In this document: piece by piece, positions 8,438-48,204 of the stretch
Numbering within the stretch: the stretch's first letter is position 1
How the letters are laid out: every line of letters starts with the position of its first letter
Assembly: GCA_023667315.1 (NCBI GenBank)
Contig: JAMPAI010000001.1
Span: 72,914-136,913 of the forward strand
Direction of reading: 5' to 3'
DNA length: 64,000 nt
Source: Ruminococcus flavefaciens
GTDB taxonomy: Bacteria; Bacteroidota; Bacteroidia; Bacteroidales; P3
Notes under the pieces: model-generated
Database searches by the model: none
Seen by the model: the letters and a program-made list of their open reading frames with translations, nothing else
What the model was told of the DNA's origin: nothing
Translations under genes and position numbers: made by a program

Positions 8438-10006
8438 ATGAGTACCGAAAGAAAAGTGCGGGTGCGTTTCGCGCCCAGCCCCACCGGCCCGCTGCATATC
8501 GGCGGGGTGCGCACGGCCTTGTTCAACTACCTGTTCGCCAAACAGCACGGCGGCGATTTCCTGCTCCGTATCGAGGATACCGACTCCAACCGCTTTGTTC
8601 CCGGTGCCGAAGAATATATCATAGAAGCCTTTAAATGGCTCGGAATCCCCTTCGACGAAGGCGTGGGCATCGGCGGCCCGCACGGCCCCTACCGCCAGTC
8701 GGAAAGGCGCGACATCTACCGCAAATATGTGCAGCAGCTCTTGGATTCGGGCCACGCCTACTATGCGTTCGACACCCCCGGAGAACTGGAAGCCATGCGC
8801 AAGCGCCTGGAGGAAAGCAAGTCGAGCAGCCAGCAGTACGACGCCTCCACGCGCATGGAGATGAAGAACTCGCTGAGCCTGCCCGCCGCAGAAGTGAAGG
8901 CCCTGTTGGATGCCGGCACGCCCTACGTGGTGCGCGTCAGGATCGAACCGGGGCAGGACGTTACGGTAAACGACATGATCCGCGGCGAGGTAACGGTAAA
9001 TTCGGGCATCTTGGACGACAAGGTGCTCTACAAGAGCGCCGACGACCTGCCCACCTACCATCTGGCCAATATCGTGGACGACCACCTGATGGAAATAACC
9101 CATGTGATACGCGGCGAGGAATGGCTGCCCTCCGCACCCCTGCACGTGCTGCTTTACCAATTCTTCGGCTGGCAGGACAGCATGCCCCGCTTCGCCCACC
9201 TGCCGCTCCTGCTCAAGCCCGACGGCAACGGAAAGCTGAGCAAGCGCGACGGCGACCGTCTCGGTTTCCCGGTGTTTCCCCTGGCCTGGACCGACCCCAA
9301 GACGGGCGAGAAAAGCAGCGGCTACCGCGAAAGCGGCTACTATCCGGAAGCGGTGGTGAACATGCTGGCCTTCCTGGGCTGGAACCCCGGCACGGAAGAG
9401 GAACTCTTTACGCTCAGCGGGCTGGTGCAGGCCTTCAACCTCGAGAAGGTGAGCAAGTCGGGCGCCAAGTTCAACCTCGAGAAGGCGCATTGGTTCAACC
9501 ACCAGTACCTGCAGCAACACAGCAACGAAGATCTGGCCGAAAGCCTTAAGAAACGTCTGGCCGAACCCGGCATAAGGGGCGGATTGACGCGGGACGCGGC
9601 CTCTTTTTCCGATACCGACTTGCAGAAAATCGTGGGATTGGTGAAGGAACGCCTTTCGTTCCCCAAGGAACTGTGGGAGCAGGCCTATTTCTTCTTCGAG
9701 GCTCCGGAAGCCTACGACGAGAAGGTGGTGAAGAAACGCTGGAGCGAGGATATGCCGCAGATTCTGCGCGCCTGGTGTGCCGAAGCCGAAAAAAACGACT
9801 TCTCGGCCGCCGTACTCGAAAGCCTTACGCAAGAACTTATCGGCAAGAACGGCTGGAATGCCGGCAAGGTGTTCAACAGCATGCGCCTGAGCCTGGTAGG
9901 CGCCTCGATGGGCCCGCACATCTTCGACATCATGGAAATCATCGGCAAGCAGGAAACGCTTGCCCGCATAGAAACCGCCTGCCAAAAGATAGGCAGCGGC
10001 AACTAA
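8438..10006 (+). CDS. gltX: glutamate--tRNA ligase
   Basis: 522 aa. [22 protein letters not shown] (HIGH) and GKLSKRDG (KMSKS). Confidence 0.97.
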
Positions 10007-11590: not shown

Positions 11591-11675
11591 TACCCCGAGC
11601 GGGACTTGAACCCGCACGAATTCATCATTCACAGGATTTTAAGTCCTGCGTGTCTACCGATTCCACCATCGGGGC
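11591..11675 (-). tRNA. tRNA-Leu (anticodon UAA), long variable arm
   Basis: Reverse complement is GCCCCGATGGTGGAATCGGTAGACACGCAGGACTTAAAATCCTGTGAATGATGAATTCGTGCGGGTTCAAGTCCCGCTCGGGGTA. It folds by hand into a cloverleaf with anticodon loop CT-TAA-AA and a GTTCAAGTC T-loop. No CCA is encoded. Confidence 0.9.
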
Positions 11676-11733: not shown

Positions 11734-11809
11734 TGGAGCGGAAAACGAGGTTCGAACTCGCGACCTCAACCTTGGCAAGGTTGCGCTCTACCAGCTGAGC
11801 TACTTCCGC
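11734..11809 (-). tRNA. tRNA-Gly (anticodon GCC), CCA encoded
   Basis: Reverse complement is GCGGAAGTAGCTCAGCTGGTAGAGCGCAACCTTGCCAAGGTTGAGGTCGCGAGTTCGAACCTCGTTTTCCGCTCCA. Canonical D and T loops. Confidence 0.92.
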
Positions 11810-25198: not shown

Positions 25199-25320
25199 AA
25201 AACGATTTAGGCGGATGAGATGCAAGACGGAAGCCTCAGGAACGCGCGGGAGCGTACAGAAGTACGTGGCCAAGCGAGCCTAAGGCTTCCAACGCGGCAG
25301 CTCGCCGCCTAATTCGTTTT
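25199..25320. repeat. copy A of a 90-nt GC-rich element enclosed by a 16-bp inverted repeat that includes the deoC stop codon
   Basis: The arms at 25199-25214 and 25305-25320 match 15/16. The 90-nt interior contains the mini-hairpin cgtac-agaa-gtacg. It is homologous by eye to 32208-32297. Confidence 0.75.
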
Positions 25321-26103
25321 GGAGGCGGTGTAGAGCGCGTCGGCCAGGCGGCTGGCGCCGATACGGAAAAGCGAGGGGTTCATCCATTTCTCGCCCAGGA
25401 TCTGATACACCAGCTTGAAGTAGGGGATGGCGCCTTCCACCGAGGAGATGCCGCCGGCGGGCTTGATGCCCACGATACGGCCCTGCGCCGCGTAGCGTTC
25501 AATCACCTTCAGCATTACGTAAAAGGCTTCCGTGGTGGCCGAAACCGAGGTCTTTCCGGTGGAGGTCTTGATGAAGTCGGCGCCGTTGTCGATGGCGATG
25601 CACGAGGCCTTCTCGATATTGTCGGGCGTGTTCAGGTTGCCCGTTTCCAGAATCACCTTCAGGTGCGCCTTGCCGCAGCATTCCTTGATGGCCTTCACCT
25701 CGTCGCCCACGCGTTTGTAGTCGCCTTCCAGGAACGCGCCCTGCGAGATCACCATGTCGATTTCGTCCGCGCCGTCCTTCAGGGTCTGTTCCACCTCGAA
25801 CAGCTTGGTCCTGAGCGGCAGCTGCGAGGCCGGGAAACCGCCCGCCACGCAAGCGGTCTGGATCTTGGTGCCTTCCAGGTTCTTCTTTACCTGCGCGGCA
25901 TAATAAGGATACACGCAGACGGCAGCCGTGCCGTAGTCCTTGGCCTTCTGGCAGAGGTCATCGACCCGTTTTTGGGTGTCGGTGCCGTCGAGTGTGGTGA
26001 GGTCGATAAACGACAGCATCCTGGCGCACATTTCCTTTTCGGAGAACGGCACCGGTTTGGCCAGCAGGGCGGCCACTTCTTTCTGAACGTCTTCTATAGT
26101 CAT
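25309..26103 (-). CDS. deoC: deoxyribose-phosphate aldolase
   Basis: 264 aa. IDLTTLDG, DMVI, and the Schiff-base Lys context FIKTSTGK. Confidence 0.9.
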   Translation of the reverse strand: MTIEDVQKEVAALLAKPVPFSEKEMCARMLSFIDLTTLDGTDTQKRVDDLCQKAKDYGTAAVCVYPYYAAQVKKNLEGTKIQTACVAGGFPASQLPLRTKLFEVEQTLKDGADEIDMVISQGAFLEGDYKRVGDEVKAIKECCGKAHLKVILETGNLNTPDNIEKASCIAIDNGADFIKTSTGKTSVSATTEAFYVMLKVIERYAAQGRIVGIKPAGGISSVEGAIPYFKLVYQILGEKWMNPSLFRIGASRLADALYTASKTN

Positions 26104-28881: not shown

Positions 28882-28922
28882 CATATACCGGACTCTCGTA
28901 AACTTGCTTATGTTGCAAATTG

Positions 28923-30326
28923 ATGACAAGCTATATGGAAAAGAAAAAATTGACGATTGAACAATTGATCTCTATGCGGGAAAGCGAGGATCGTGTAGAG
29001 TTTAAAGCTTGTCAGCAAGGAAATATGTCGTTTAACGGTGTCGATAAAACCAAACCGAGCGATCGTCGAAAATGCATACTCGGTTATACGGTTGCCCTTT
29101 CCAATGCCGGTGGCGGTTATCTCGTGTTTGGAATGCACGATGCATATCCTCATAAAGTTGTGGGAACCAAACAAAACGAGAATTCTTTGGGGCAACTTGA
29201 AAATGACATATACAAGGCATTTCCACAAGCCAAGGTGATGCACGAGTATCGTAATACCGAAGGACAGGAACGCTTTGACAAACGTATGTCTTTTGGCGAA
29301 CCTTTCTACATTTTGATTGATAAAGTCTGGAAGGCCATCGATGCCCGTAATGGAAATGTTCCCGTTCAAGAGGGAGCCTATATATTTGATATACCTTTCT
29401 TTAACGAGGAAGTGATTCGTGAAGTGGTTAACAATGCTTTTGCACACCGTGATTATCGCCTTGGCAGTGAAATTGTCATCAAGCAATGCCCTACCAAATT
29501 GTCGATTGTAAGTCCCGGCGGCTTTCCTCTGGGTGTTACCCTCGATAATATACTGACTGTTTCAAGTACGCCCCGCAACCGGCTTTTGGCGGATGTACTT
29601 GCGATGACCGGTATTGTGGAACGTTCCGGTCAGGGAATGGATGTAATCTTTCGATTGACCCTTTCGGAGGGAAAACAAAAACCAGACTATAATCAAACGG
29701 ATGACTATCAAGTTACAGCCATCTTGTCTGCAACCGTGAAAGATCCGGGTTTCGCCTTGTTTATCAAAAGCATTCAACAAGAACTACCGGAAAACCAAAA
29801 ATTATCGGTGTTTGATATATTGACTTTTCGTGCCATACACGAGGGGTATCAACCTAAGGATAAGGACACTGCGAAAAGGTTGTTTTCTATGGGTTTTCTC
29901 GAGAAAAGAGGCAAGACCTCGGCCATACGTTATATTTTGCCGCGTCGTTATTATGAGTTGACCAATAAACTTTCGGAGTATTCAAGGTTGACAGATTGGG
30001 ATGACGAACAGGTTTGGGCTGTTTTGTTTCCCTACCTTCGTAAGTATGGAAAGGCCAAGAAAGCAGATATAGCCAACCTGATAGGCAACCATATATCGGA
30101 GACTCAATTACGCCGGGTTATCGAACGGTTAACAGAGCAGGGAATGCTTACCAAAAACGGCAAAACAACAAATACCGTGTATTCTATATCCTCGGCGTAT
30201 CTGGCTCGATTGGATGTACTGACCGAAGCAACCAAGATAGGGCTTGGCCAAATGAAGAAAGATGCGGGGTTATCATCAAGTGACGGAACAAGTGACGGAA
30301 CAAGAGGACAAAAAGAAGAGGTTTAA
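28923..30326 (+). CDS. AlbA_2 (Schlafen-like) DNA-binding domain + HATPase_c_4-like protein, annotated in databases as putative ATP-dependent DNA helicase RecG-related/transcriptional regulator
   Basis: ORF 28920-30326 (TTG; ATG at 28923 or 28935). N-terminal ESEDRVEFKA (AlbA_2 signature). Mid-region REVVNNAFAHRDYRLGSEIVIKQCPTKLSIVSPGGFP...STPRNRLLADVL...ERSGQGMDVI. Visibly AT-richer than its neighbours. Confidence 0.75.
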   Translation: MTSYMEKKKLTIEQLISMRESEDRVEFKACQQGNMSFNGVDKTKPSDRRKCILGYTVALSNAGGGYLVFGMHDAYPHKVVGTKQNENSLGQLENDIYKAFPQAKVMHEYRNTEGQERFDKRMSFGEPFYILIDKVWKAIDARNGNVPVQEGAYIFDIPFFNEEVIREVVNNAFAHRDYRLGSEIVIKQCPTKLSIVSPGGFPLGVTLDNILTVSSTPRNRLLADVLAMTGIVERSGQGMDVIFRLTLSEGKQKPDYNQTDDYQVTAILSATVKDPGFALFIKSIQQELPENQKLSVFDILTFRAIHEGYQPKDKDTAKRLFSMGFLEKRGKTSAIRYILPRRYYELTNKLSEYSRLTDWDDEQVWAVLFPYLRKYGKAKKADIANLIGNHISETQLRRVIERLTEQGMLTKNGKTTNTVYSISSAYLARLDVLTEATKIGLGQMKKDAGLSSSDGTSDGTRGQKEEV

Positions 30327-30370: not shown

Positions 30371-32203
30371 ATGACGGAACAAGTGACGGAACAGGATATG
30401 AAAACTGAAGTTTTCAATAAGATAGACCCCGACGCCCTGCCCATCGAGGCCTGGCTGCCCGTTTCCAAAAAGGAAATGGAGAAGCGCGGCTGGGAGCAGG
30501 CCGACATCATCCTGATAAGCGGCGACGCGTATGTGGACCATCCCTCGTTCGGCATCGCCGTGATCGGGCGTACCCTGGAGGCCGCCGGCTACAGGGTGGC
30601 CATCCTGCCGCAGCCCAACTGGCGCGACGACCTGCGCGACTTCAGGAAACTGGGCAGGCCGCGGCTGTTCTTCGGCGTTTCGGCGGGCAGCATGGACTCG
30701 ATGGTGAACCACTACACGGCGCGCAAGCGCCTGCGCAGCAACGACGCCTATACCCCCGGCGGGCAGGCCGGTTTTCGCCCCGATTACCCCACCATCGTTT
30801 ATTCAAAGATACTCAAGGAGATATATCCCGACGTGCCGGTGGTTGTCGGCGGCATCGAGGCCTCGATGCGCCGCATCACGCACTACGACTACTGGCAGGA
30901 TAGGCTGCGGCCCTCTTTTCTGGTGGAAAGCGGCGCCGACCTGCTCGTGTACGGCATGGGCGAGAAACCCATCGTGGAGATAGCCCGGCAACTGGAGCGG
31001 AACCCGCGCGCCGAGGCCTGCCGGAACATCCTGCAGGTATCTTACCTGGAGAAAGGCGCGCCGAGGCCTTCGCCGGTGCCCGAAGCCGACCTGGTGCTGG
31101 AGCCGCACGAACGCTGCCTTAAGGACAAGCGTTGCCAGGCCGGGAACTTCGCCGTGGTGGAAACGGCCTCGAACATGATGCGCTGCGGGCGTATCCTGCA
31201 GAAGACCGCTTGGGGCACGGTGGTGGTGAACCCGCCCTTTCCGTTCGAGCCGGGCGGCCACGAGATCGACAAAAGCTTCGACCTGCCGTACACCCGCCTG
31301 CCGCACCCCCGCTACAAGAACCGGGGCGAGATACCGGCCTTCACGATGATCCAGAACTCGATCACCCTGCACCGGGGCTGTTTCGGCGGCTGCTCGTTCT
31401 GCACCATTTCCGCCCATCAGGGCAAGCACGTGCACAGCCGCAGCGAGGAATCGGTACTGAAGGAGATACAACAGCTTGCCCGGATGCCGTATTTTAAGGG
31501 CAATCTGAGCGATTTGGGTGGGCCGAGCGCCAATATGTACGGAATGCACGGAAAAGACCTCGCAAAATGCGCCAGATGCAAGAAGCCGTCCTGTCTCTTT
31601 CCGTCCATCTGCCCGAACCTGAACCCCGACCACAGTACACTGCTCGAATTATACAAAAAGGCGGCATCCCTGCCCGGCGTGCGCCGCGTGTTCATCGGCA
31701 GCGGCGTGCGCTACGACCTGCTGGTGCCCTACCTCGAGACGGGCGGCAGGGGAAGGCCCTCGCAGAACCATGCGCGGGAATACGCCCAATGGCTTATAGA
31801 AAACGGGGTTTCGGGACGCCTGAAGGTGGCGCCCGAACACACCGAGGCGTCGGTGCTGGAAAGGATGCGCAAGATGCCGTTCTCGCAGTTCGAGGAATTC
31901 AAGCGTTTCTTCGACGGGCACTGCCGCAGCCGCCACCTCAACTTCCAGCTGATTCCGTATTTTATCTCCGCCCATCCGGGCTGCACCCAAAAGGATATGG
32001 AACGCCTGCAGGAGAAAACCAGACACCTGGGCTACAAGCTGGAGCAGGTGCAGCTCTTTACGCCCACCCCGATGACGCTCTCCACCGAAACCTACTACAC
32101 GGGACTGGACCCCTACACGCTAAAGCCGGTGTTTACGGAGCGGGATTTTGCCAGACGGGACAGGCAGACCGATTGTTTCTTCTGGTACAAAATTCGGCAA
32201 TAA
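30371..32203 (+). CDS. ygiQ: YgiQ-family radical SAM protein (UPF0313)
   Basis: ORF 30368-32203 (ATG at 30371). ILISGDAYVDHPSFGIAVIGR, MDSMVNHYTARKRLRSNDAYTPGG and the CxxxCxxC motif CFGGCSFC closely parallel E. coli YgiQ. Confidence 0.9.
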   Translation: MTEQVTEQDMKTEVFNKIDPDALPIEAWLPVSKKEMEKRGWEQADIILISGDAYVDHPSFGIAVIGRTLEAAGYRVAILPQPNWRDDLRDFRKLGRPRLFFGVSAGSMDSMVNHYTARKRLRSNDAYTPGGQAGFRPDYPTIVYSKILKEIYPDVPVVVGGIEASMRRITHYDYWQDRLRPSFLVESGADLLVYGMGEKPIVEIARQLERNPRAEACRNILQVSYLEKGAPRPSPVPEADLVLEPHERCLKDKRCQAGNFAVVETASNMMRCGRILQKTAWGTVVVNPPFPFEPGGHEIDKSFDLPYTRLPHPRYKNRGEIPAFTMIQNSITLHRGCFGGCSFCTISAHQGKHVHSRSEESVLKEIQQLARMPYFKGNLSDLGGPSANMYGMHGKDLAKCARCKKPSCLFPSICPNLNPDHSTLLELYKKAASLPGVRRVFIGSGVRYDLLVPYLETGGRGRPSQNHAREYAQWLIENGVSGRLKVAPEHTEASVLERMRKMPFSQFEEFKRFFDGHCRSRHLNFQLIPYFISAHPGCTQKDMERLQEKTRHLGYKLEQVQLFTPTPMTLSTETYYTGLDPYTLKPVFTERDFARRDRQTDCFFWYKIRQ

Positions 32204-32315
32204 AAGGGTGATCTGCTTCCTTGCTTCGGGCTCGCTCTTCGGTCACGTACTGAAGTACGCTCCCTCAGGCTTAGACCTCGCGGCGTTGCATCTCACACCT
32301 TTTATTGCCGAATTT
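32190..32315. repeat. copy B of the 90-nt GC-rich element enclosed by an 18-bp perfect inverted repeat that includes the ygiQ stop codon
   Basis: The arms are aaattcggcaataaaagg (32190-32207) and ccttttattgccgaattt (32298-32315). The 90-nt interior contains cgtac-tgaa-gtacg (32246-32259). Confidence 0.78.
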
Positions 32316-32354
32316 GGCGGTCTGGCGGGTTTTCTGCGAGATGGCTTGTAAAAC

Positions 32355-32383
32355 AAAAGGGCTTGTCTGTGACAAGCCCTTTT
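32355..32383. terminator. bidirectional rho-independent terminator between ygiQ and tdh
   Basis: aaaagggcttgtc-tgt-gacaagccctttt, a perfect 13-bp stem with A/T runs on both sides. Confidence 0.8.
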
Positions 32384-32405
32384 GTAAAAATTGCAGTGCA
32401 AGGTT

Positions 32406-33374
32406 TTAGAACTTGCCGGCCTTGTATTTTTCGCCCACCAGCTGGAGCATTTCCTTGGTCATGGTGTCCAGGTCGTAGGCCGGTTTCCAATCCCATTCAG
32501 CGCGGGCGCAGCTGTCGTCGATCGAATTGGGCCACGAGTCGGCGATGGCCTGGCGGAAGTCGGGCTTGTACACGATTTCCAGGTTCGGCATGTATTTCTT
32601 TACCGATTCGTACATGTCCTTGGGCGTTACGCTGAAGGCGGCGATGTTGTAACCCGTGCTGTGCTTGAGGCGGCTCTTTTCGGCATGGAAAAGGTCGATG
32701 GTGGCCTTCAAGCAGTCGGGCATGTACATCATGGGAAGCATGGAGTTCTCGGACAGGAAGCATTCGAACTTGCCGTACTTGATGGCGTCGTAGTAAATCT
32801 GCACCGCGTAGTCGGTGGTGCCGCCGCCGGGCAGGGTCTCGCTCGAGATGATGCCGGGGTAGCGCACGCCGCGGATATCCATGCCGAACTTGTCGATGTA
32901 GTACTGACCTAAGAGTTCGCACGAAACCTTGGTGATGCCGTACATGGTGGAAGGTTGCAGCACGGTGTCCTGCGGGGTCATGTCGGCGGGGGTGGTGGGG
33001 CCGAAGGCGGCCATGGAGCTGGGGGCGAAGATACGCTTGATGCCCTTTTCCTTGGCCACGTTATATACGTTGATGGTGCCGCCCATGTTGATGTTCCAGG
33101 CCAGCATGGGGTTCTTCTCGCCCACGGCCGACAGGATGGCGGCCAGGTGGAAGATGGCGTCGATCTGGTACTTGTCGATGAGTTCTGCCAAACGCTTGCC
33201 GTCCAAAACATCCAGTTGTTCGATAGGACCGCCGTTCTTGATCTTGTCGGTTACCCGGTTCAAGTCCAAGTCGGTGGCAATTACATTTTCACCTCCGTAA
33301 ATCTTACGCAAGGCACAGGTAAGTTCCGAGCCGATCTGCCCGAAAGAACCCGTTAACAGAATACGCTTTATCAT
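32406..33374 (-). CDS. tdh: L-threonine 3-dehydrogenase, SDR/UDP-glucose 4-epimerase-like type
   Basis: 322 aa. ILLTGSFGQIGSEL Rossmann motif, YGITKVSCE (YxxxK) and GGGTTDYAV, typical of short-chain type TDH. Confidence 0.85.
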   Translation of the reverse strand: MIKRILLTGSFGQIGSELTCALRKIYGGENVIATDLDLNRVTDKIKNGGPIEQLDVLDGKRLAELIDKYQIDAIFHLAAILSAVGEKNPMLAWNINMGGTINVYNVAKEKGIKRIFAPSSMAAFGPTTPADMTPQDTVLQPSTMYGITKVSCELLGQYYIDKFGMDIRGVRYPGIISSETLPGGGTTDYAVQIYYDAIKYGKFECFLSENSMLPMMYMPDCLKATIDLFHAEKSRLKHSTGYNIAAFSVTPKDMYESVKKYMPNLEIVYKPDFRQAIADSWPNSIDDSCARAEWDWKPAYDLDTMTKEMLQLVGEKYKAGKF

Positions 33375-44131: not shown

Positions 44132-46708
44132 ATGAAAAGTCGTGTATCCGGTAGGCTTTTTCTCCTTTTTTCCCTCATCTGTTTGCCGCTCGCAGGCTAC
44201 GCCACCCACCAGAAGGCCGCCGAGCTTACGGTCAGGCATGTGTCGGGCTATACCTACCGCGCCATATTGACCACCTACACCTATACGGGAACGCCCGTTG
44301 ACCGTCCCGAAATAGAGCTGGCCTGGGGCGACGGCACCGTCGAGGTGGTCTCGCGCAGCGGCGAGCAGTATCTGGGCAACGACACCAAGATGAACCGCTA
44401 CGAGGCCGTACACACCTATTCGGGTCCCGGGGTCTATACGCTCTACATGGAAGACCCCAACCGAAATTCGGGGGTCATCAATGTGCCCAACAGCGTGCTC
44501 ACCTACATGTACATCTCCACCTCCATCATCATAAGCCCCTGGCTGGGCGAGGGCAACAGCACGCCCGTAACCACCCACCGCCCGGTGGATGACAACGCCT
44601 GCCTGGGCAAGCGCTACACCCATAACCCGGGTGCCTACGACCCCGATGCCGACAGCCTTTCGTACCGTCTGGTACCCTGCCGCACCATGAACGGCGAGGA
44701 CGTGCCGGGCTATTCCTATCCCGTGGCGAGCGACACTTTCTTTCTCCATCCCACCACCGGAACCTTGGTGTGGCAAAGCCCCATGGCGCAGGGCGAATAC
44801 AATGTGGCCATCCTGATGGAGGAATGGCGCAACGGCATAAAGCTGGGGCATGTTACGCGCGACATGCAGATTCTGGTGCGCACCTGCAGCAACAACCCGC
44901 CCTACATCGAGGCCGGGGAAGAACACTGCGTGCTGGCCGGCACCGACCTGCACCTGCCCGTAAGCGTGCGCGACCAAGACGGCGACCGCCTGCGGCTTAC
45001 CGCGTTCGGCGAGATCCTTTCGGGCGGCAGGCGTTCGGGGCTGAACGAACTCTACAACGGCATCGATTCGGCCGAATACGACTTCTACTGGGTAACGGGG
45101 CTGGCCGATTCGCGCAGGCAGCCCTACATGCTCTACCTGCGTGCGCAAGACAACGGAGATCCCAACCTGAGCGACGTGCGCACCGTTTCGGTGCGGGTGG
45201 TGGCTCCGGCGGTAACTTTTTCCAATGCGCAGGCGAGCCGCGACCGCGTGGAACTGGCCTGGAACAGGAGCCTTTCACCCCACGCCTCGGGCTACGAACT
45301 GTACCGCCGCGACTTTTACCGCGACGAAACGCCCGCCGACACCTGTTTCACGGGCATTTCCGATTCTTCGTACATCCTTGTCGGCAGCTTTGCCGCCACC
45401 GATACGAGCTTTATCGATTTCTCGGTGCAGGAAGGCATGGAATACTGCTACAAGGTGGTGGTTACGTTTCCCGACGGCGACAGGAGCCGCGAGTCGGAGC
45501 CCGTCTGCGTGGAAACGCCCAATTTCTCGCCGCTCATCACGCAGGTAAGCGTGCTGGAGACCGATGTTTTCGAAGGCTGCCTGCAGGTTTCCTGGGTCCG
45601 CCCCAAAGATCTTGACAGCGGGTCGCAACGCTACCGTCTGTATGGCGGTCAGGTTCCCGACAGTCTGGCGTTCCTGGCCGATTTCGCCTTCGATTCCTGT
45701 GTGCAATACATCGATTCGGGGCGCAATACCGAGCGGATACGCTATTTCTACCGGGTGGAGGTTGACAGTTTCGCTTCCCGCCGGGCCTCCTCGGTTTACC
45801 TTACCGCCATCGGAAAGCCGCGCCGCGTGGAACTGCAGTGGGTCTGCGACGTGCCTTGGATCGTGGAACGCTACGATGTGTACCGCTACAACGACAGCGC
45901 GCAGGCTTTCGGTTTGATAGGCAGCACGAAAGACCGCATGTATTCCGACCGCCATCTGGAACCTGGAACGGAATACACCTACTATGTGGACGCGATAGCC
46001 ACCTACGGCAGCCGCCGCCTGAACGGATACACGCACAATCTCTCCAACATTATCGGCGAAACCGCCCGTCCCGGCGAGCCCTGCCAGCCCTACGTATTTG
46101 TGGTTCAGTCGAATTGCGACCCTTTTTACAACAAGATCGTGTGGAGTTTCGACAGTGCCTACGACCCCTTCGCCCCCGAACGGAACGACATGCAGGACGA
46201 ATACCTGGAAGACTGCCGCCTTTCGACCGACTATTACGAGATATACCGGCGCGAACCGGATAAAGGCGATTGGGACCTGATAGCCACCGTGCCCGAAACC
46301 GAATATACCGACAACGAGCCGGGTTCGCTCTTTTCGTGCTACCGGGTGGTGGGCGTGGCCGATGCCGGGCTGTACAGCGAGCCCAGCCGGGAGGCCTGCA
46401 CCGACAACTGGAACTGTTTCGTGTTCGACCTGCCCAACGTGTTCACTCCGAACGGCGACGGGGTCAACGATGTGCTCAAGCCGCGGAAATACAGGGACAT
46501 CAGCGAGTTTTACATCAAGATAGTGAACCGATGGGGCGTGGAAGTGTTCAAATCCTCCAAACCCGATTTCGAATGGAACGGACAGATGTACAACAAGGGC
46601 AAGGAATGCCCCGACGGAGCCTATTTCTATATGGCCGAGTTCAAGGCCAGGGCTTCGGGAAGAACGTTTAAGAAAGTGCAGTCGGGCAGCGTGACCATTC
46701 TGCGTTAG
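44132..46708 (+). CDS. large secreted protein with a T9SS type-B (gliding motility-associated) C-terminal sorting domain
   Basis: ORF 44114-46708 (GTG) trimmed to the ATG at 44132 (MKSRVSGRLFLLFSLICLPLAGYA signal). The C-terminus has LPNVFTPNGDGVNDVLKP...WNG...DGAYFY, typical of TIGR04131-type CTDs. Confidence 0.85.
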   Translation: MKSRVSGRLFLLFSLICLPLAGYATHQKAAELTVRHVSGYTYRAILTTYTYTGTPVDRPEIELAWGDGTVEVVSRSGEQYLGNDTKMNRYEAVHTYSGPGVYTLYMEDPNRNSGVINVPNSVLTYMYISTSIIISPWLGEGNSTPVTTHRPVDDNACLGKRYTHNPGAYDPDADSLSYRLVPCRTMNGEDVPGYSYPVASDTFFLHPTTGTLVWQSPMAQGEYNVAILMEEWRNGIKLGHVTRDMQILVRTCSNNPPYIEAGEEHCVLAGTDLHLPVSVRDQDGDRLRLTAFGEILSGGRRSGLNELYNGIDSAEYDFYWVTGLADSRRQPYMLYLRAQDNGDPNLSDVRTVSVRVVAPAVTFSNAQASRDRVELAWNRSLSPHASGYELYRRDFYRDETPADTCFTGISDSSYILVGSFAATDTSFIDFSVQEGMEYCYKVVVTFPDGDRSRESEPVCVETPNFSPLITQVSVLETDVFEGCLQVSWVRPKDLDSGSQRYRLYGGQVPDSLAFLADFAFDSCVQYIDSGRNTERIRYFYRVEVDSFASRRASSVYLTAIGKPRRVELQWVCDVPWIVERYDVYRYNDSAQAFGLIGSTKDRMYSDRHLEPGTEYTYYVDAIATYGSRRLNGYTHNLSNIIGETARPGEPCQPYVFVVQSNCDPFYNKIVWSFDSAYDPFAPERNDMQDEYLEDCRLSTDYYEIYRREPDKGDWDLIATVPETEYTDNEPGSLFSCYRVVGVADAGLYSEPSREACTDNWNCFVFDLPNVFTPNGDGVNDVLKPRKYRDISEFYIKIVNRWGVEVFKSSKPDFEWNGQMYNKGKECPDGAYFYMAEFKARASGRTFKKVQSGSVTILR

Positions 46709-48204
46709 AGCCGGAACAGCGTTATCAGAACCGCGACGAGGGCGGTAATCAGGAATTTTACGAAGAGCGGGGCGCGTTCGAAAATGCGCATCCATGATTT
46801 TTTTTGCCGTTCGCGTACGAAGACCAGGCAGAAGAACACGAGCATCAGCAGTAGGAACGCCATGCCGTAGGTGTAGTCGAGCACCGAGATGCGGCTCCAG
46901 CCGGCGGGGTCGAACAGCCCGAAAAAGAAATCGGCGGCCGACTGCAGGCTTCCCGAACGGAAAAAGATCCAGCCGAAGCTTATCAGGTTAAAGGTAATGA
47001 ACCAGCCCGTCAGGCGCAGCCAGCGGTTCCGTTCCACCTTGGCATCCCAGCGGCTCAGTTTCTCGATGCAAAGCACCGCGGCATGCAGGGCAGCCCACAG
47101 CAGGAATCCCAGGCCGGCGCCGTACCAGAGCCCTGCCAGCAGCATGGTAATGAGCAGTGCCGTCACCATGCGGAACTGCCCGTGGCGGTTGCCTCCCAAG
47201 GGTATATACACGTAATCCTTGAACCAGTCGTGCAGCGTGATGTGCCAGCGGCACCAGAAATCGCTAAGGCTCGATGCCTTGTAAGGAGAGTGGAAGTTCT
47301 CGGGCATGGAGAAACCCAACAGGGAGGAAAGCCCCGAAGCTATGTCGGTATAGCCCGAAAAGGCACAGTAAATCCATACCGAGAAACCGTAGAGCGCCAT
47401 CCATTTCTCAATGCCCGAGAACAGGTCGGGATTGTCGAAAACGGGCGAGACGATATGTGTGTCCAGAAAGTAAGCCACCGCGCCCGCCTTTACCAGGCCG
47501 AGCAGGATCTGTGTGAGCCCGCTCGAGAATTCCTGGCGTGTAAGCATGTAGTGGCTCTGCATCTGCGCCATGAAGGTCTCGGTGCGCACGATGGGGCCGG
47601 CCAGCATCTTGGGGAAGAACATTAGGTAGAAGCCGAAATCGCCCGCGCTTGCGAACGAAACCGTGTGTCCGCGCTTTAAATCGATCAGGTAGGAAAGGGC
47701 GTGGAGGGTAAAGAACGACAGTCCCACGGGAGGTATGAGCCGCTCTATGGTTTCGGGAAACAGCCGTCCGGAAGAGGTTTCGCTTAAGGGAAAGCCGTCC
47801 GCCAGGTAGTCGATGGCCGGCATTCCGCCGCCCCAGAGGGCGTTCCACAACTGGGTAAAGAACACGTTGTATTTAAAGACCGCCAGGATGCCGAGGTTCA
47901 GCAGAACCCCCACGGTCAGCCATGCCGCGCTCCCCTTGTCGGAACTTCTCTCGATTATCTTGCCGATGCCGTGGTTGAGGAACATCGACAGCAGCAGGAT
48001 AAAAACGAACAGCCCGCCCGTCTTGTAGCAGAAAAACAGGCTGCAAAGCAGCAGGAAAGTGTTCCTTGCCCGGCGGTTCCTGTAGCAGAGCGAGAGGCCG
48101 CCCAGCACGATGCACACGAAGATCCAGAAGGAGATTCCGGTAAACAGGAAACCCTTCTGTGGCGAGAACAAAAAGAAGTCCGACACTAAATCCAAGAGGT
48201 TCAT
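46705..48204 (-). CDS. MBOAT-family O-acyltransferase (AlgI/DltB/PatA-like)
   Basis: 499 aa, polytopic. Signature FWCRWHITLHDWFKDYVYIPLGGNR. Confidence 0.9.
   Translation of the reverse strand: MNLLDLVSDFFLFSPQKGFLFTGISFWIFVCIVLGGLSLCYRNRRARNTFLLLCSLFFCYKTGGLFVFILLLSMFLNHGIGKIIERSSDKGSAAWLTVGVLLNLGILAVFKYNVFFTQLWNALWGGGMPAIDYLADGFPLSETSSGRLFPETIERLIPPVGLSFFTLHALSYLIDLKRGHTVSFASAGDFGFYLMFFPKMLAGPIVRTETFMAQMQSHYMLTRQEFSSGLTQILLGLVKAGAVAYFLDTHIVSPVFDNPDLFSGIEKWMALYGFSVWIYCAFSGYTDIASGLSSLLGFSMPENFHSPYKASSLSDFWCRWHITLHDWFKDYVYIPLGGNRHGQFRMVTALLITMLLAGLWYGAGLGFLLWAALHAAVLCIEKLSRWDAKVERNRWLRLTGWFITFNLISFGWIFFRSGSLQSAADFFFGLFDPAGWSRISVLDYTYGMAFLLLMLVFFCLVFVRERQKKSWMRIFERAPLFVKFLITALVAVLITLFRL

Follow-up and report, generated by a model that had tools for sequence, protein, structure and literature searches.

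The window analysed here, a 64,000-nucleotide stretch of contig JAMPAI010000001.1 from an uncultured member of the Bacteroidales, carries two long palindromic elements, copy A at the stop codon of deoC and copy B at the stop codon of ygiQ. Both are probably full-length members of a multi-copy, non-coding family of palindromes of about 122-127 nt, which resemble MITEs (transposable elements of the miniature inverted-repeat type) and are distantly related to ERIC, the enterobacterial repetitive intergenic consensus, or intergenic repeat unit (IRU). Comparison with related genomes indicates that the whole of copy B, both arms included, was inserted directly after the last conserved lysine codon of ygiQ, that its 5' arm supplied the three last codons and the stop of this gene, and that the insertion predates the split between the window genome and the metagenome-assembled genome (MAG) GCA_023663425.1. 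The arms are best described as the element's own termini, fast-evolving and mutually complementary, and the apex and two internal blocks as its conserved parts.

The two elements share one architecture (Table 1). In copy B, the arms are complementary at 18 of 18 positions and enclose exactly 90 nt, and the TAA of ygiQ at 32201-32203 lies inside the left arm, all at the coordinates given by a first-pass annotation made from the letters of the window. The ygiQ open reading frame (ORF) ends in ...FWYKIRQ*, and its last conserved codon, the Lys AAA at 32189-32191, overlaps the start of the 5' arm. In copy A, the arms are 16 nt long, complementary at 15 of 16 positions and separated by 90 nt, and the element is edged by A4 and T5. 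The pattern CACGTAC-N4-GTACGCTCCC is exact in both copies, giving two matches in the window where 0.14 would be expected by chance. As the first-pass annotation had noticed, the two elements have several blocks in common, among them GGCTCGCT and TTGCATCTCA, and the apical stem CGTAC/GTACG is identical while the loops differ (TGAA and TTCT); in copy B this 5-bp stem with its 4-nt loop is flanked by pyrimidine-rich internal loops. The overall identity of 62% is above the 50 percent below which the same annotation would have abandoned the kinship of the two copies, and the arms of the two copies do not resemble one another. Each copy folds into a single long bulged hairpin, far better than shuffled sequences do (z -6.5 and -9.3 for the two full copies), and their coding content is restricted to the host read-through of 2-3 codons into arms of 16-18 nt. 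When the 64 kb were searched for inverted repeats of at least 15 nt within 250 nt, the sole other perfect one was the terminator-like repeat downstream of copy B.

Table 1. Position of the elements, their parts and the associated genes in the window.
Feature	Position	Strand	Remarks
Copy B, complete element, 126 nt	32190-32315	+	Same orientation as ygiQ
Copy B, 5' arm (terminal inverted repeat)	32190-32207	+	AAATTCGGCAATAAAAGG; encodes the ygiQ tail Ile-Arg-Gln and TAA
Copy B, left conserved block	32210-32224	+	GATCTGCTTCCTTGC; family consensus ATCTGCnGCGTTGC
Copy B, conserved apex	32239-32266	+	TCGGT-CACGTAC-TGAA-GTACGCTCCC-TC; from the core search and the family alignment
Copy B, right conserved block	32282-32295	+	GGCGTTGCATCTCA; family consensus CGCCTTGCATcTcA
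Copy B, 3' arm	32298-32315	+	Perfect complement of 32190-32207
ygiQ, host gene of copy B	30398-32203	+	YgiQ-family radical SAM protein, 95% identity to a protein so named; start uncertain, ATG at 30371 or 30398
Terminator-like hairpin	32353-32385	.	15-bp perfect inverted repeat; A-run before, T-run after
Copy A, complete element, 122 nt	25199-25320	-	Same orientation as deoC
Copy A, 5' arm	25305-25320	-	Holds the deoC tail Thr-Asn and TAG at 25309-25311
Copy A, core	25248-25268	-	Core pattern match
Copy A, 3' arm	25199-25214	-	Inverted-repeat partner of the 5' arm
deoC, host gene of copy A	25309-26103	-	Deoxyribose-phosphate aldolase family (DeoC); PF01791 recorded on orthologues
Two tRNA genes	11591-11675 and 11737-11809	-	Sole Rfam gathering-threshold matches in the window

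The evidence for insertion comes from the orthologous sites. The exact-protein look-up found neither the DeoC nor the YgiQ of the window on record; the window has its closest relatives among uncultured Bacteroidales MAGs, and the nearest of them keep the gene order deoC-LUD-rpiB-rplU-rpmA-ygiQ. In YgiQ the conserved sequence stops at ...CFFWYK, beyond which the orthologues vary. Three independent ygiQ sites are without the element: in L124 (85% identity to the window) the gene ends ...tggtacaaa TAA (WYK*) with the next gene 3 nt on, in L122/L123 (88% identity) it ends ...aaa aga TAG (WYKR*), and in a metagenomic contig (L128) it ends ...aaa cgt TGA. The window reads WYK-IRQ* and holds a complete element, and L121 (95% identity) reads WYK-IRK* and holds the left half only, followed by unrelated sequence. 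At the deoC site, L122 (...tccaaa TAA, ASK*) and L124 (...cgt TAA, ASR*) are again without the element, and both the window and L121 read ASK-TN* and carry a complete element, that of L121 being orthologous to copy A. None of the three element-free ygiQ orthologues or the two element-free deoC orthologues has a hairpin at the stop codon or any arm-like sequence, from which we conclude that the IRQ* and TN* tails came with the element and that no earlier hairpin existed at either site. A MAG with empty sites nevertheless carries a family member elsewhere (L032 and L124). To the right of each window copy, the sequence differs from every empty site, because the downstream genes are not the same.

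These sites bear directly on the origin of the arms. The first-pass annotation had proposed that a 90-nt element sits in the loop of a stop-codon hairpin that was already there, or that the target was duplicated in inverted form, so that the arms would be host sequence. The dissimilarity of the A and B arms, each overlapping the stop of its own host gene, was the ground for this proposal, and this dissimilarity stands; it extends to the family, in which 5' arms taken from different copies resemble each other, on average, only as much as random sequence does (26%) and are complementary to their partners within each copy. It could also be said in favour of host-derived arms that the available empty sites belong to relatives whose proteins are 85-88% identical and not to the same species. 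The host origin of the arms, however, did not hold. The element-free orthologues are shorter by exactly the codons that the arms encode, host-gene conservation ends where the arm begins, and the arm sequence is missing from the ancestral-type sites, which speaks against an inverted target duplication as well as against a pre-existing hairpin. For ygiQ, orthologues with neither element nor hairpin are essentially what the annotation itself had named as contrary to the loop-insertion model, except that their C-terminus is shorter and not identical. Directly outside arm 2, the window and L121 have unrelated sequences at both the ygiQ and the deoC loci, and since synteny breaks just outside this arm, the arms lie inside the element. 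Furthermore, identical arms are found at many unrelated loci within genomes, for example in Porphyromonas somerae, in a Polyangia MAG and in a Muribaculaceae MAG, and the Bacteroidales MAGs show compensated variants of one arm, AAAA-NN-GTTTTGGACGG; the arm of copy A is related to it, and the copy B arm is nearest to the arms of L033 and L077. Target-derived arms would not be expected to recur across loci in this way. Taken together, these data make host-derived arms very unlikely. What did stand of the earlier proposal is that the copies are insertions of a dispersed element and not duplications of one locus, in agreement with both the empty orthologous sites and the presence of the family elsewhere.

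Between the orthologous deoC-site copies of the window and L121, the arms and the conserved blocks are kept, and the inner stems and loops differ in an internally compensated manner. The element is only 80% identical, as opposed to 95.5% for the coding sequence, 91% for third codon positions and 88-98% for intergenic sequence. To account for such a divergence, one would have to invoke conversion by another copy, a second insertion into this site or template switching directed by the palindrome. At the ygiQ site of L121 (positions 9376-9445 of this locus), the left half-element is followed by unrelated sequence and a tRNA gene; synteny with L121 ends exactly at the right edge of the element at both sites, which suggests that the elements mark rearrangement breakpoints.

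The family was collected by scanning reference genomes for the exact 21-nt core, the loci being 8-kb contig blocks. The core was found in more than 118 loci, a lower bound, and 106 of the 127 full-flank matches listed form the centre of a hairpin of at least 22 bp, with a median length of 126 nt. The common frame begins with a variable outer arm, (A/G)TCTGC-n-GCGTTG and a variable inner stem, continues with the centre TCGGT-CACGTAC-N4-GTACGCTCCC-TC, and closes with the complementary inner stem, GCCTTGCATCTCA and the complementary outer arm; the flanking blocks are thus common to the copies even though they lie outside the search pattern. Among the matches listed, relatives occur in at least eight phyla. 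Isolates carrying the element include Porphyromonas somerae, P. levii and Falsiporphyromonas endometrii in the Bacteroidota, Sporosarcina luteola, Lysinibacillus and Psychrobacillus in the Bacillota, Marinobacter nauticus, Pseudomonas and several Enterobacteriaceae in the Gammaproteobacteria, and Lacibacterium aquatile in the Alphaproteobacteria, and MAGs add Myxococcota, Desulfobacterota, Verrucomicrobiota, Lentisphaerota and Coriobacteriales. Many copies per genome are present in P. somerae and in Polyangia and Verrucomicrobia MAGs. One or two matches, such as L053, look like chance, and L108 carries a Clostridiales label but has the look of a wrongly binned Porphyromonas contig.

An nhmmer profile was built from 55 copies, with the window and enterobacterial copies excluded. 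It matched copy B (32202-32303) with an E-value of 5e-18 and copy A with 6e-16, the deoC copy of L121 with 7e-15 and the ygiQ half-copy of L121 with 9e-3. When the core columns were left out, the four Bacteroidales copies remained in first place on the strength of the left flank alone (E-values 0.016-0.047). Some members are arranged in tandem: seven head-to-tail copies with a period of 135-136 nt lie at about 340-1210 of L099 (F. endometrii), and two-copy tandems occur in L006, L026 and L031, so the family can form tandem arrays. In P. somerae (L024, L041, L098, L104), several copies have an extra segment of about 35-40 nt in the right half of the hairpin, perhaps a small insertion nested within it or else a family variant of different length.

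A gene that might mobilise the element was sought by clustering the ORFs of the 118 neighbourhoods, 8 kb each, and no recurrent protein family emerged within them: the best neighbour cluster occurred in 6 of about 70 genomes, and the top clusters were all housekeeping families. The gene next to ygiQ in the window (28920-30326) was considered for this role and discarded, its product being a Schlafen/AlbA_2 protein and not a transposase. In their small size, lack of coding capacity and inverted repeats, the elements are comparable to the Correia/NEMIS MITEs of Neisseria and to the RUP, SPRITE and RPE MITEs. MITEs of these kinds are co-transcribed with their neighbours, fold as RNA hairpins, are able to change how transcripts are processed or terminated and can become fused in frame to the ends of ORFs (PMC10969869, PMC2229807). 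There is, however, no sequence relation, and the termini of those MITEs are conserved and transposase-related, whereas in the present family the centre is conserved and the termini vary. The BrickBuilt MITE of Porphyromonas has no relation to the family either.

The complementarity of the stems was assessed on the 55-sequence alignment. RNAalifold run on a MAFFT alignment returned the invariant apical stem only, because the variable stems were out of register, and it was replaced by a consensus of the minimum-free-energy pairs of each sequence combined with pair counting. Paired cells reached 73%, compared with 54% in shuffles (none of 500 shuffles attained 73%), cells changed on both sides numbered 581 against 251 +/- 13, and the covariation score was 0.425 against 0.154, with slid registers giving 0.14-0.21. 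The central stem, singled out by the first-pass annotation as the place to look for covariation, is no exception: copies without the exact core include three independent compensated variants of it, together with one wobble and one mismatch.

The position of the copies relative to genes is also strongly biased. Considering ORFs of at least 200 codons and a stop inside an arm or within 10 nt of it, 37 copies have the stop of a co-oriented ORF at their 5' arm and 3 have that of a convergent ORF at their 3' arm (p 2e-8); counted by genome, the figures are 26 and 2. The asymmetry cannot result from the stop content of the arms, because the arms are mutually complementary. In most abutting copies the stop is at the very edge of the element, and in copies A and B the reading frame continues for 3-4 codons within the arm. 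De Gregorio et al. reportedly found in 2005 that the ERICs of Yersinia which overlap or adjoin a stop codon take one preferred orientation.

The enterobacterial matches of the scan are genuine ERIC/IRU copies. That of Enterobacter (L014) is identical to the E. coli ERIC/RU-1 consensus at 112 of 127 positions (PMC2759123) and finds a match along its whole length in all 5,426 complete E. coli genomes, the median number of places in a genome being 11. The 21-nt apex is exact in the ERICs of Enterobacter, Klebsiella and Citrobacter and in the window copies, and the apex of E. coli and Salmonella ERICs is one compensated pair away from the general core (CTTAC...GTAAG). Like ERIC (127 nt), the window copies (122-126 nt) form a single long bulged hairpin, and the blocks follow in the same order, CTGC-GCGTTGG, stem, (C/G)AGTCAC-stem-loop-stem-GCTCC(C/T), stem and GCCGCCTTGC. 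Both are multi-copy, intergenic, located at gene 3' ends and variably present between relatives, and no mobilising enzyme is assigned to either. There are documented cases of ERIC copies that are joined to the 3' end of a gene and have removed its native stop (PMC2759123), and orientation is stated to be crucial for ERIC (PMC2229807); here too, stop-adjacent copies keep one orientation and can replace the host stop, and the orientation of the window copies is that of the ORF-fused ERICs (PMC2759123). The differences are nonetheless substantial. The window arms AAATTCGGCAATAAAAGG and AAAACGAATTAGGCGG are unrelated to the TATACCC.../...GGGTATA termini of ERIC and differ between copies of one genome, and the host, an uncultured member of the Bacteroidales, is outside the stated range of ERIC (PMC10969869), which reviews place in the Enterobacteriaceae and Vibrionaceae (PMC10969869, PMC3184786). 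Our search of the literature, which was incomplete, brought up no earlier account of the conserved core and none of relatives of ERIC in other phyla.

Several observations weigh against membership of the window copies in an ERIC-related mobile family. The profile built from non-enterobacterial copies speaks for a link by recovering the E. coli ERIC in L127, yet its E-value of 3e-3 is modest, and the window copies are 54-55% identical to the E. coli ERIC consensus (local-alignment z 3.8-5.4). ERIC has 5'-TA-3' at both ends and duplicates a TA target (PMC2229807, PMC3184786), and at neither window copy are TA termini or, by comparison with the more distant empty sites available, a TA target duplication visible. 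The Rfam model RF02818 gives no match at E<=0.01 to the window copies or to the other Bacteroidales copies. As the family alignment was seeded with the exact core, the invariance of its apex is partly a matter of construction. The likeness of the window arms to arms at other loci is marginal (p about 0.05-0.09), and a metagenome scan for ygiQ junctions of the same species yielded one contig only, a more distant empty site. Finally, the mRNA-sense strand shows no preference for G.T appositions over A.C (243 and 303, respectively), and the helix is therefore without the classic signature of RNA-level selection on this strand. Given the modest profile link, the identity of 54-55% and the lack of a RF02818 match, we place the window copies on a distant branch of a superfamily of ERIC type and not within ERIC in the strict sense.

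The same family data could be read in terms of a functional, cis-acting structured RNA, that is, a regulatory or stabilising module of the 3' untranslated region (UTR) whose apex binds a conserved RNA-binding protein or RNase and whose mobility is incidental or ancient. The strong covariation of the stems with compensated apex variants, the conservation of apex and internal loops across phyla, the orientation bias and the precise abutment on stop codons are all in line with such a module, and the ERIC of Vibrio is catalogued as an expressed RNA under RF02818. This model (Vibrio RNA AS5) is in effect a Vibrio ERIC model on the complementary strand, with a length of 129 nt and a single full-length hairpin; the E. 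coli and Enterobacter ERICs match it end to end at 39-49 bits, below the gathering score of 96 bits. It has GUGAC beside the apical stem in common with our family, but the Vibrio consensus has a longer apex of a different sequence. The two strands of the element are not equivalent: mismatches on the strand shown are of the type T.C or C.T in 865 cases and A.G or G.A in 46, and the conserved internal loops, read on the complementary strand, turn into tandem G.A appositions, as in GAGAUGC/GCAGAUC. The antisense transcript may be the better-structured RNA, in keeping with these tandem G.A appositions and with the strand on which Vibrio AS5 is modelled. On the other hand, close relatives differ in the presence of the element at the same loci, copy numbers are high, with tandem arrays in some cases (L099), the host genes are unrelated to one another, G.U pairs are not preferred on the mRNA strand, and the complementarity of a palindrome can also be kept by processes at the DNA level. 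We consider a structured RNA in place of a mobile element improbable; it overlaps the mobile-family explanation rather than excluding it.

A repeated intrinsic terminator, possibly bidirectional, is a further explanation for hairpins at gene 3' ends, where both window copies lie, and it would fit the A4 and T5 that flank copy A and the A-runs and T-runs at the edges of several Bacteroidales copies. Across the family, however, a 3'-edge T-run of at least 4 was counted in 15 of 105 copies and of at least 5 in 3 of 105, and the stems are long, bulged and AT-rich at their base. The 3' side of the copy B hairpin has T3 only. The separate T-run hairpin lies 40 nt beyond copy B, between ygiQ and a convergent epimerase gene (32406-33374); its 15-bp repeat with A-run and T-run, pointed out by the first-pass annotation as a canonical terminator, is real, but a simple terminator scan over 32100-32500 made no call, this hairpin included. 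A terminator function of the family appears highly improbable. Termination downstream of ygiQ is probably left to the separate hairpin, which also serves the epimerase gene, so that copy B would be dispensable for it, as had been suggested. Searched with Rfam at gathering thresholds, the whole window gave two tRNAs and nothing over copy A or copy B. A weak full-length match of the Rfam family RtT over copy B (E-value 0.44) was dropped; genuine ERIC loci match RF02818 and not RtT.

Long imperfect palindromes right after ORFs, with inverted repeats around a short segment, also recall other structured DNA sites, namely REPINs, which RAYT transposases mobilise, attC sites of integrons and invertible segments. 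REPINs are likewise abundant extragenic palindromic hairpins of about 100 nt whose halves evolve in concert (PMC3116915). Unlike REPINs, the present elements have no REP-type GTAG heads, neither a RAYT nor any other recurrent gene was found in the 8-kb neighbourhoods of the copies, and the conserved sequence is at the apex and not in two REP arms. For attC, the arms are without R''/R' core sites or GTTRRRY-type cores, the conserved part is central, and the window has no integrase and no cassette array. Inversion of a palindrome with perfect arms would leave the host ORF unchanged, and the arms differ between copies and could not serve one recombinase. Sites of these three kinds are extremely unlikely here.

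Returning to the mobile ERIC-like family, a mechanism for copy B may be sketched by analogy. The data above establish its starting points: the element was inserted at the end of ygiQ in the stop-adjacent orientation, its arm gave the tail and the stop, and its hairpin has been maintained. It would then be co-transcribed as the start of the ygiQ 3' UTR and fold into the long hairpin, as the ERICs of Yersinia do. With the TAA placed 11 nt into the 18-bp basal stem, a terminating ribosome would have to open this stem, and the folding of the hairpin could depend on the translation of ygiQ, and with it how stable the upstream mRNA is or how it is processed. ERICs are co-transcribed with flanking genes, and their effect on the upstream mRNA is orientation-dependent and has been attributed to ribosomes that block hairpin folding and thereby uncover a site for RNase E within the right-hand repeat (PMC2229807, PMC10969869). 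By comparison with these ERICs, copy B probably acts as a co-transcribed 3'-UTR hairpin opened at its base by terminating ribosomes.

A bolder reading is that ERIC is the enterobacterial twig of an essentially pan-bacterial superfamily of hairpins of about 125 nt with a conserved apex and two pyrimidine-rich internal loops; we offer it tentatively, as a possibility that the present data leave doubtful. Such a superfamily may span the Bacteroidota, Gamma- and Alphaproteobacteria, Myxococcota, Desulfobacterota, Verrucomicrobiota, Lentisphaerota, Bacillota and Coriobacteriales; its stems and termini may be free to change as long as they remain paired, and its copies may home to the 3' edges of ORFs, or be kept there, in a single orientation. 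If this were true, a folded single strand, of RNA or single-stranded DNA, would be recognised by a widely conserved partner, unlike the binding of terminal repeats by transposases.

The deoC and ygiQ loci themselves represent the ordinary outcome of a miniature repeat landing on the stop codons of two housekeeping genes and call for no new insertion mechanism. The cross-phylum ERIC-type family is a notable by-product, of moderate interest. For decades, ERIC-based polymerase chain reaction (ERIC-PCR) has been used in typing all kinds of bacteria. To our knowledge, the machinery that mobilises ERIC and the function of ERIC are unsettled. Should the cross-phylum family hold, it would offer many independent lineages, including the cultivable P. 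somerae, F. endometrii, S. luteola and M. nauticus, and a sharply defined motif for partner-protein searches, and the model of a ribosome-dependent 3'-UTR hairpin could be tested outside enterobacteria. For genome annotation, C-terminal tails and stop codons supplied by a repeat will resemble lineage-specific protein extensions.

Other repeats were noticed in the window. An inverted repeat of 19 nt (18/19) around 89 nt, at 47296-47314/47404-47422, lies inside the ORF of a 499-aa membrane protein (46705-48204, minus strand). Its arm and spacer geometry is that of copies A and B and a third copy was considered at 47296-47422, but this was rejected, the repeat being intragenic with an unrelated interior and no match to the family profile. 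Inversion of this segment would bring in three stop codons, and it is therefore not an in-frame recoding switch. Between rpmA and ygiQ, the gene already mentioned at 28920-30326 (plus strand) encodes a 468-aa protein with Schlafen AlbA_2 and HATPase_c_4 domains and is absent in L121, L122 and L124. After it, a 25-nt direct repeat, TGACGGAACAAGTGACGGAACA(A/G)G, occurs at 30281-30305 and 30372-30396, the second copy encoding the MTEQVTEQ start of the long ygiQ ORF; the region looks like a gene insertion with a duplicated junction. Finally, the intergenic segment 39665-39744 holds the 18-nt motif TTATCTTGATAAAAATGT twice in direct and once in inverted orientation, a cluster that looks like an operator.

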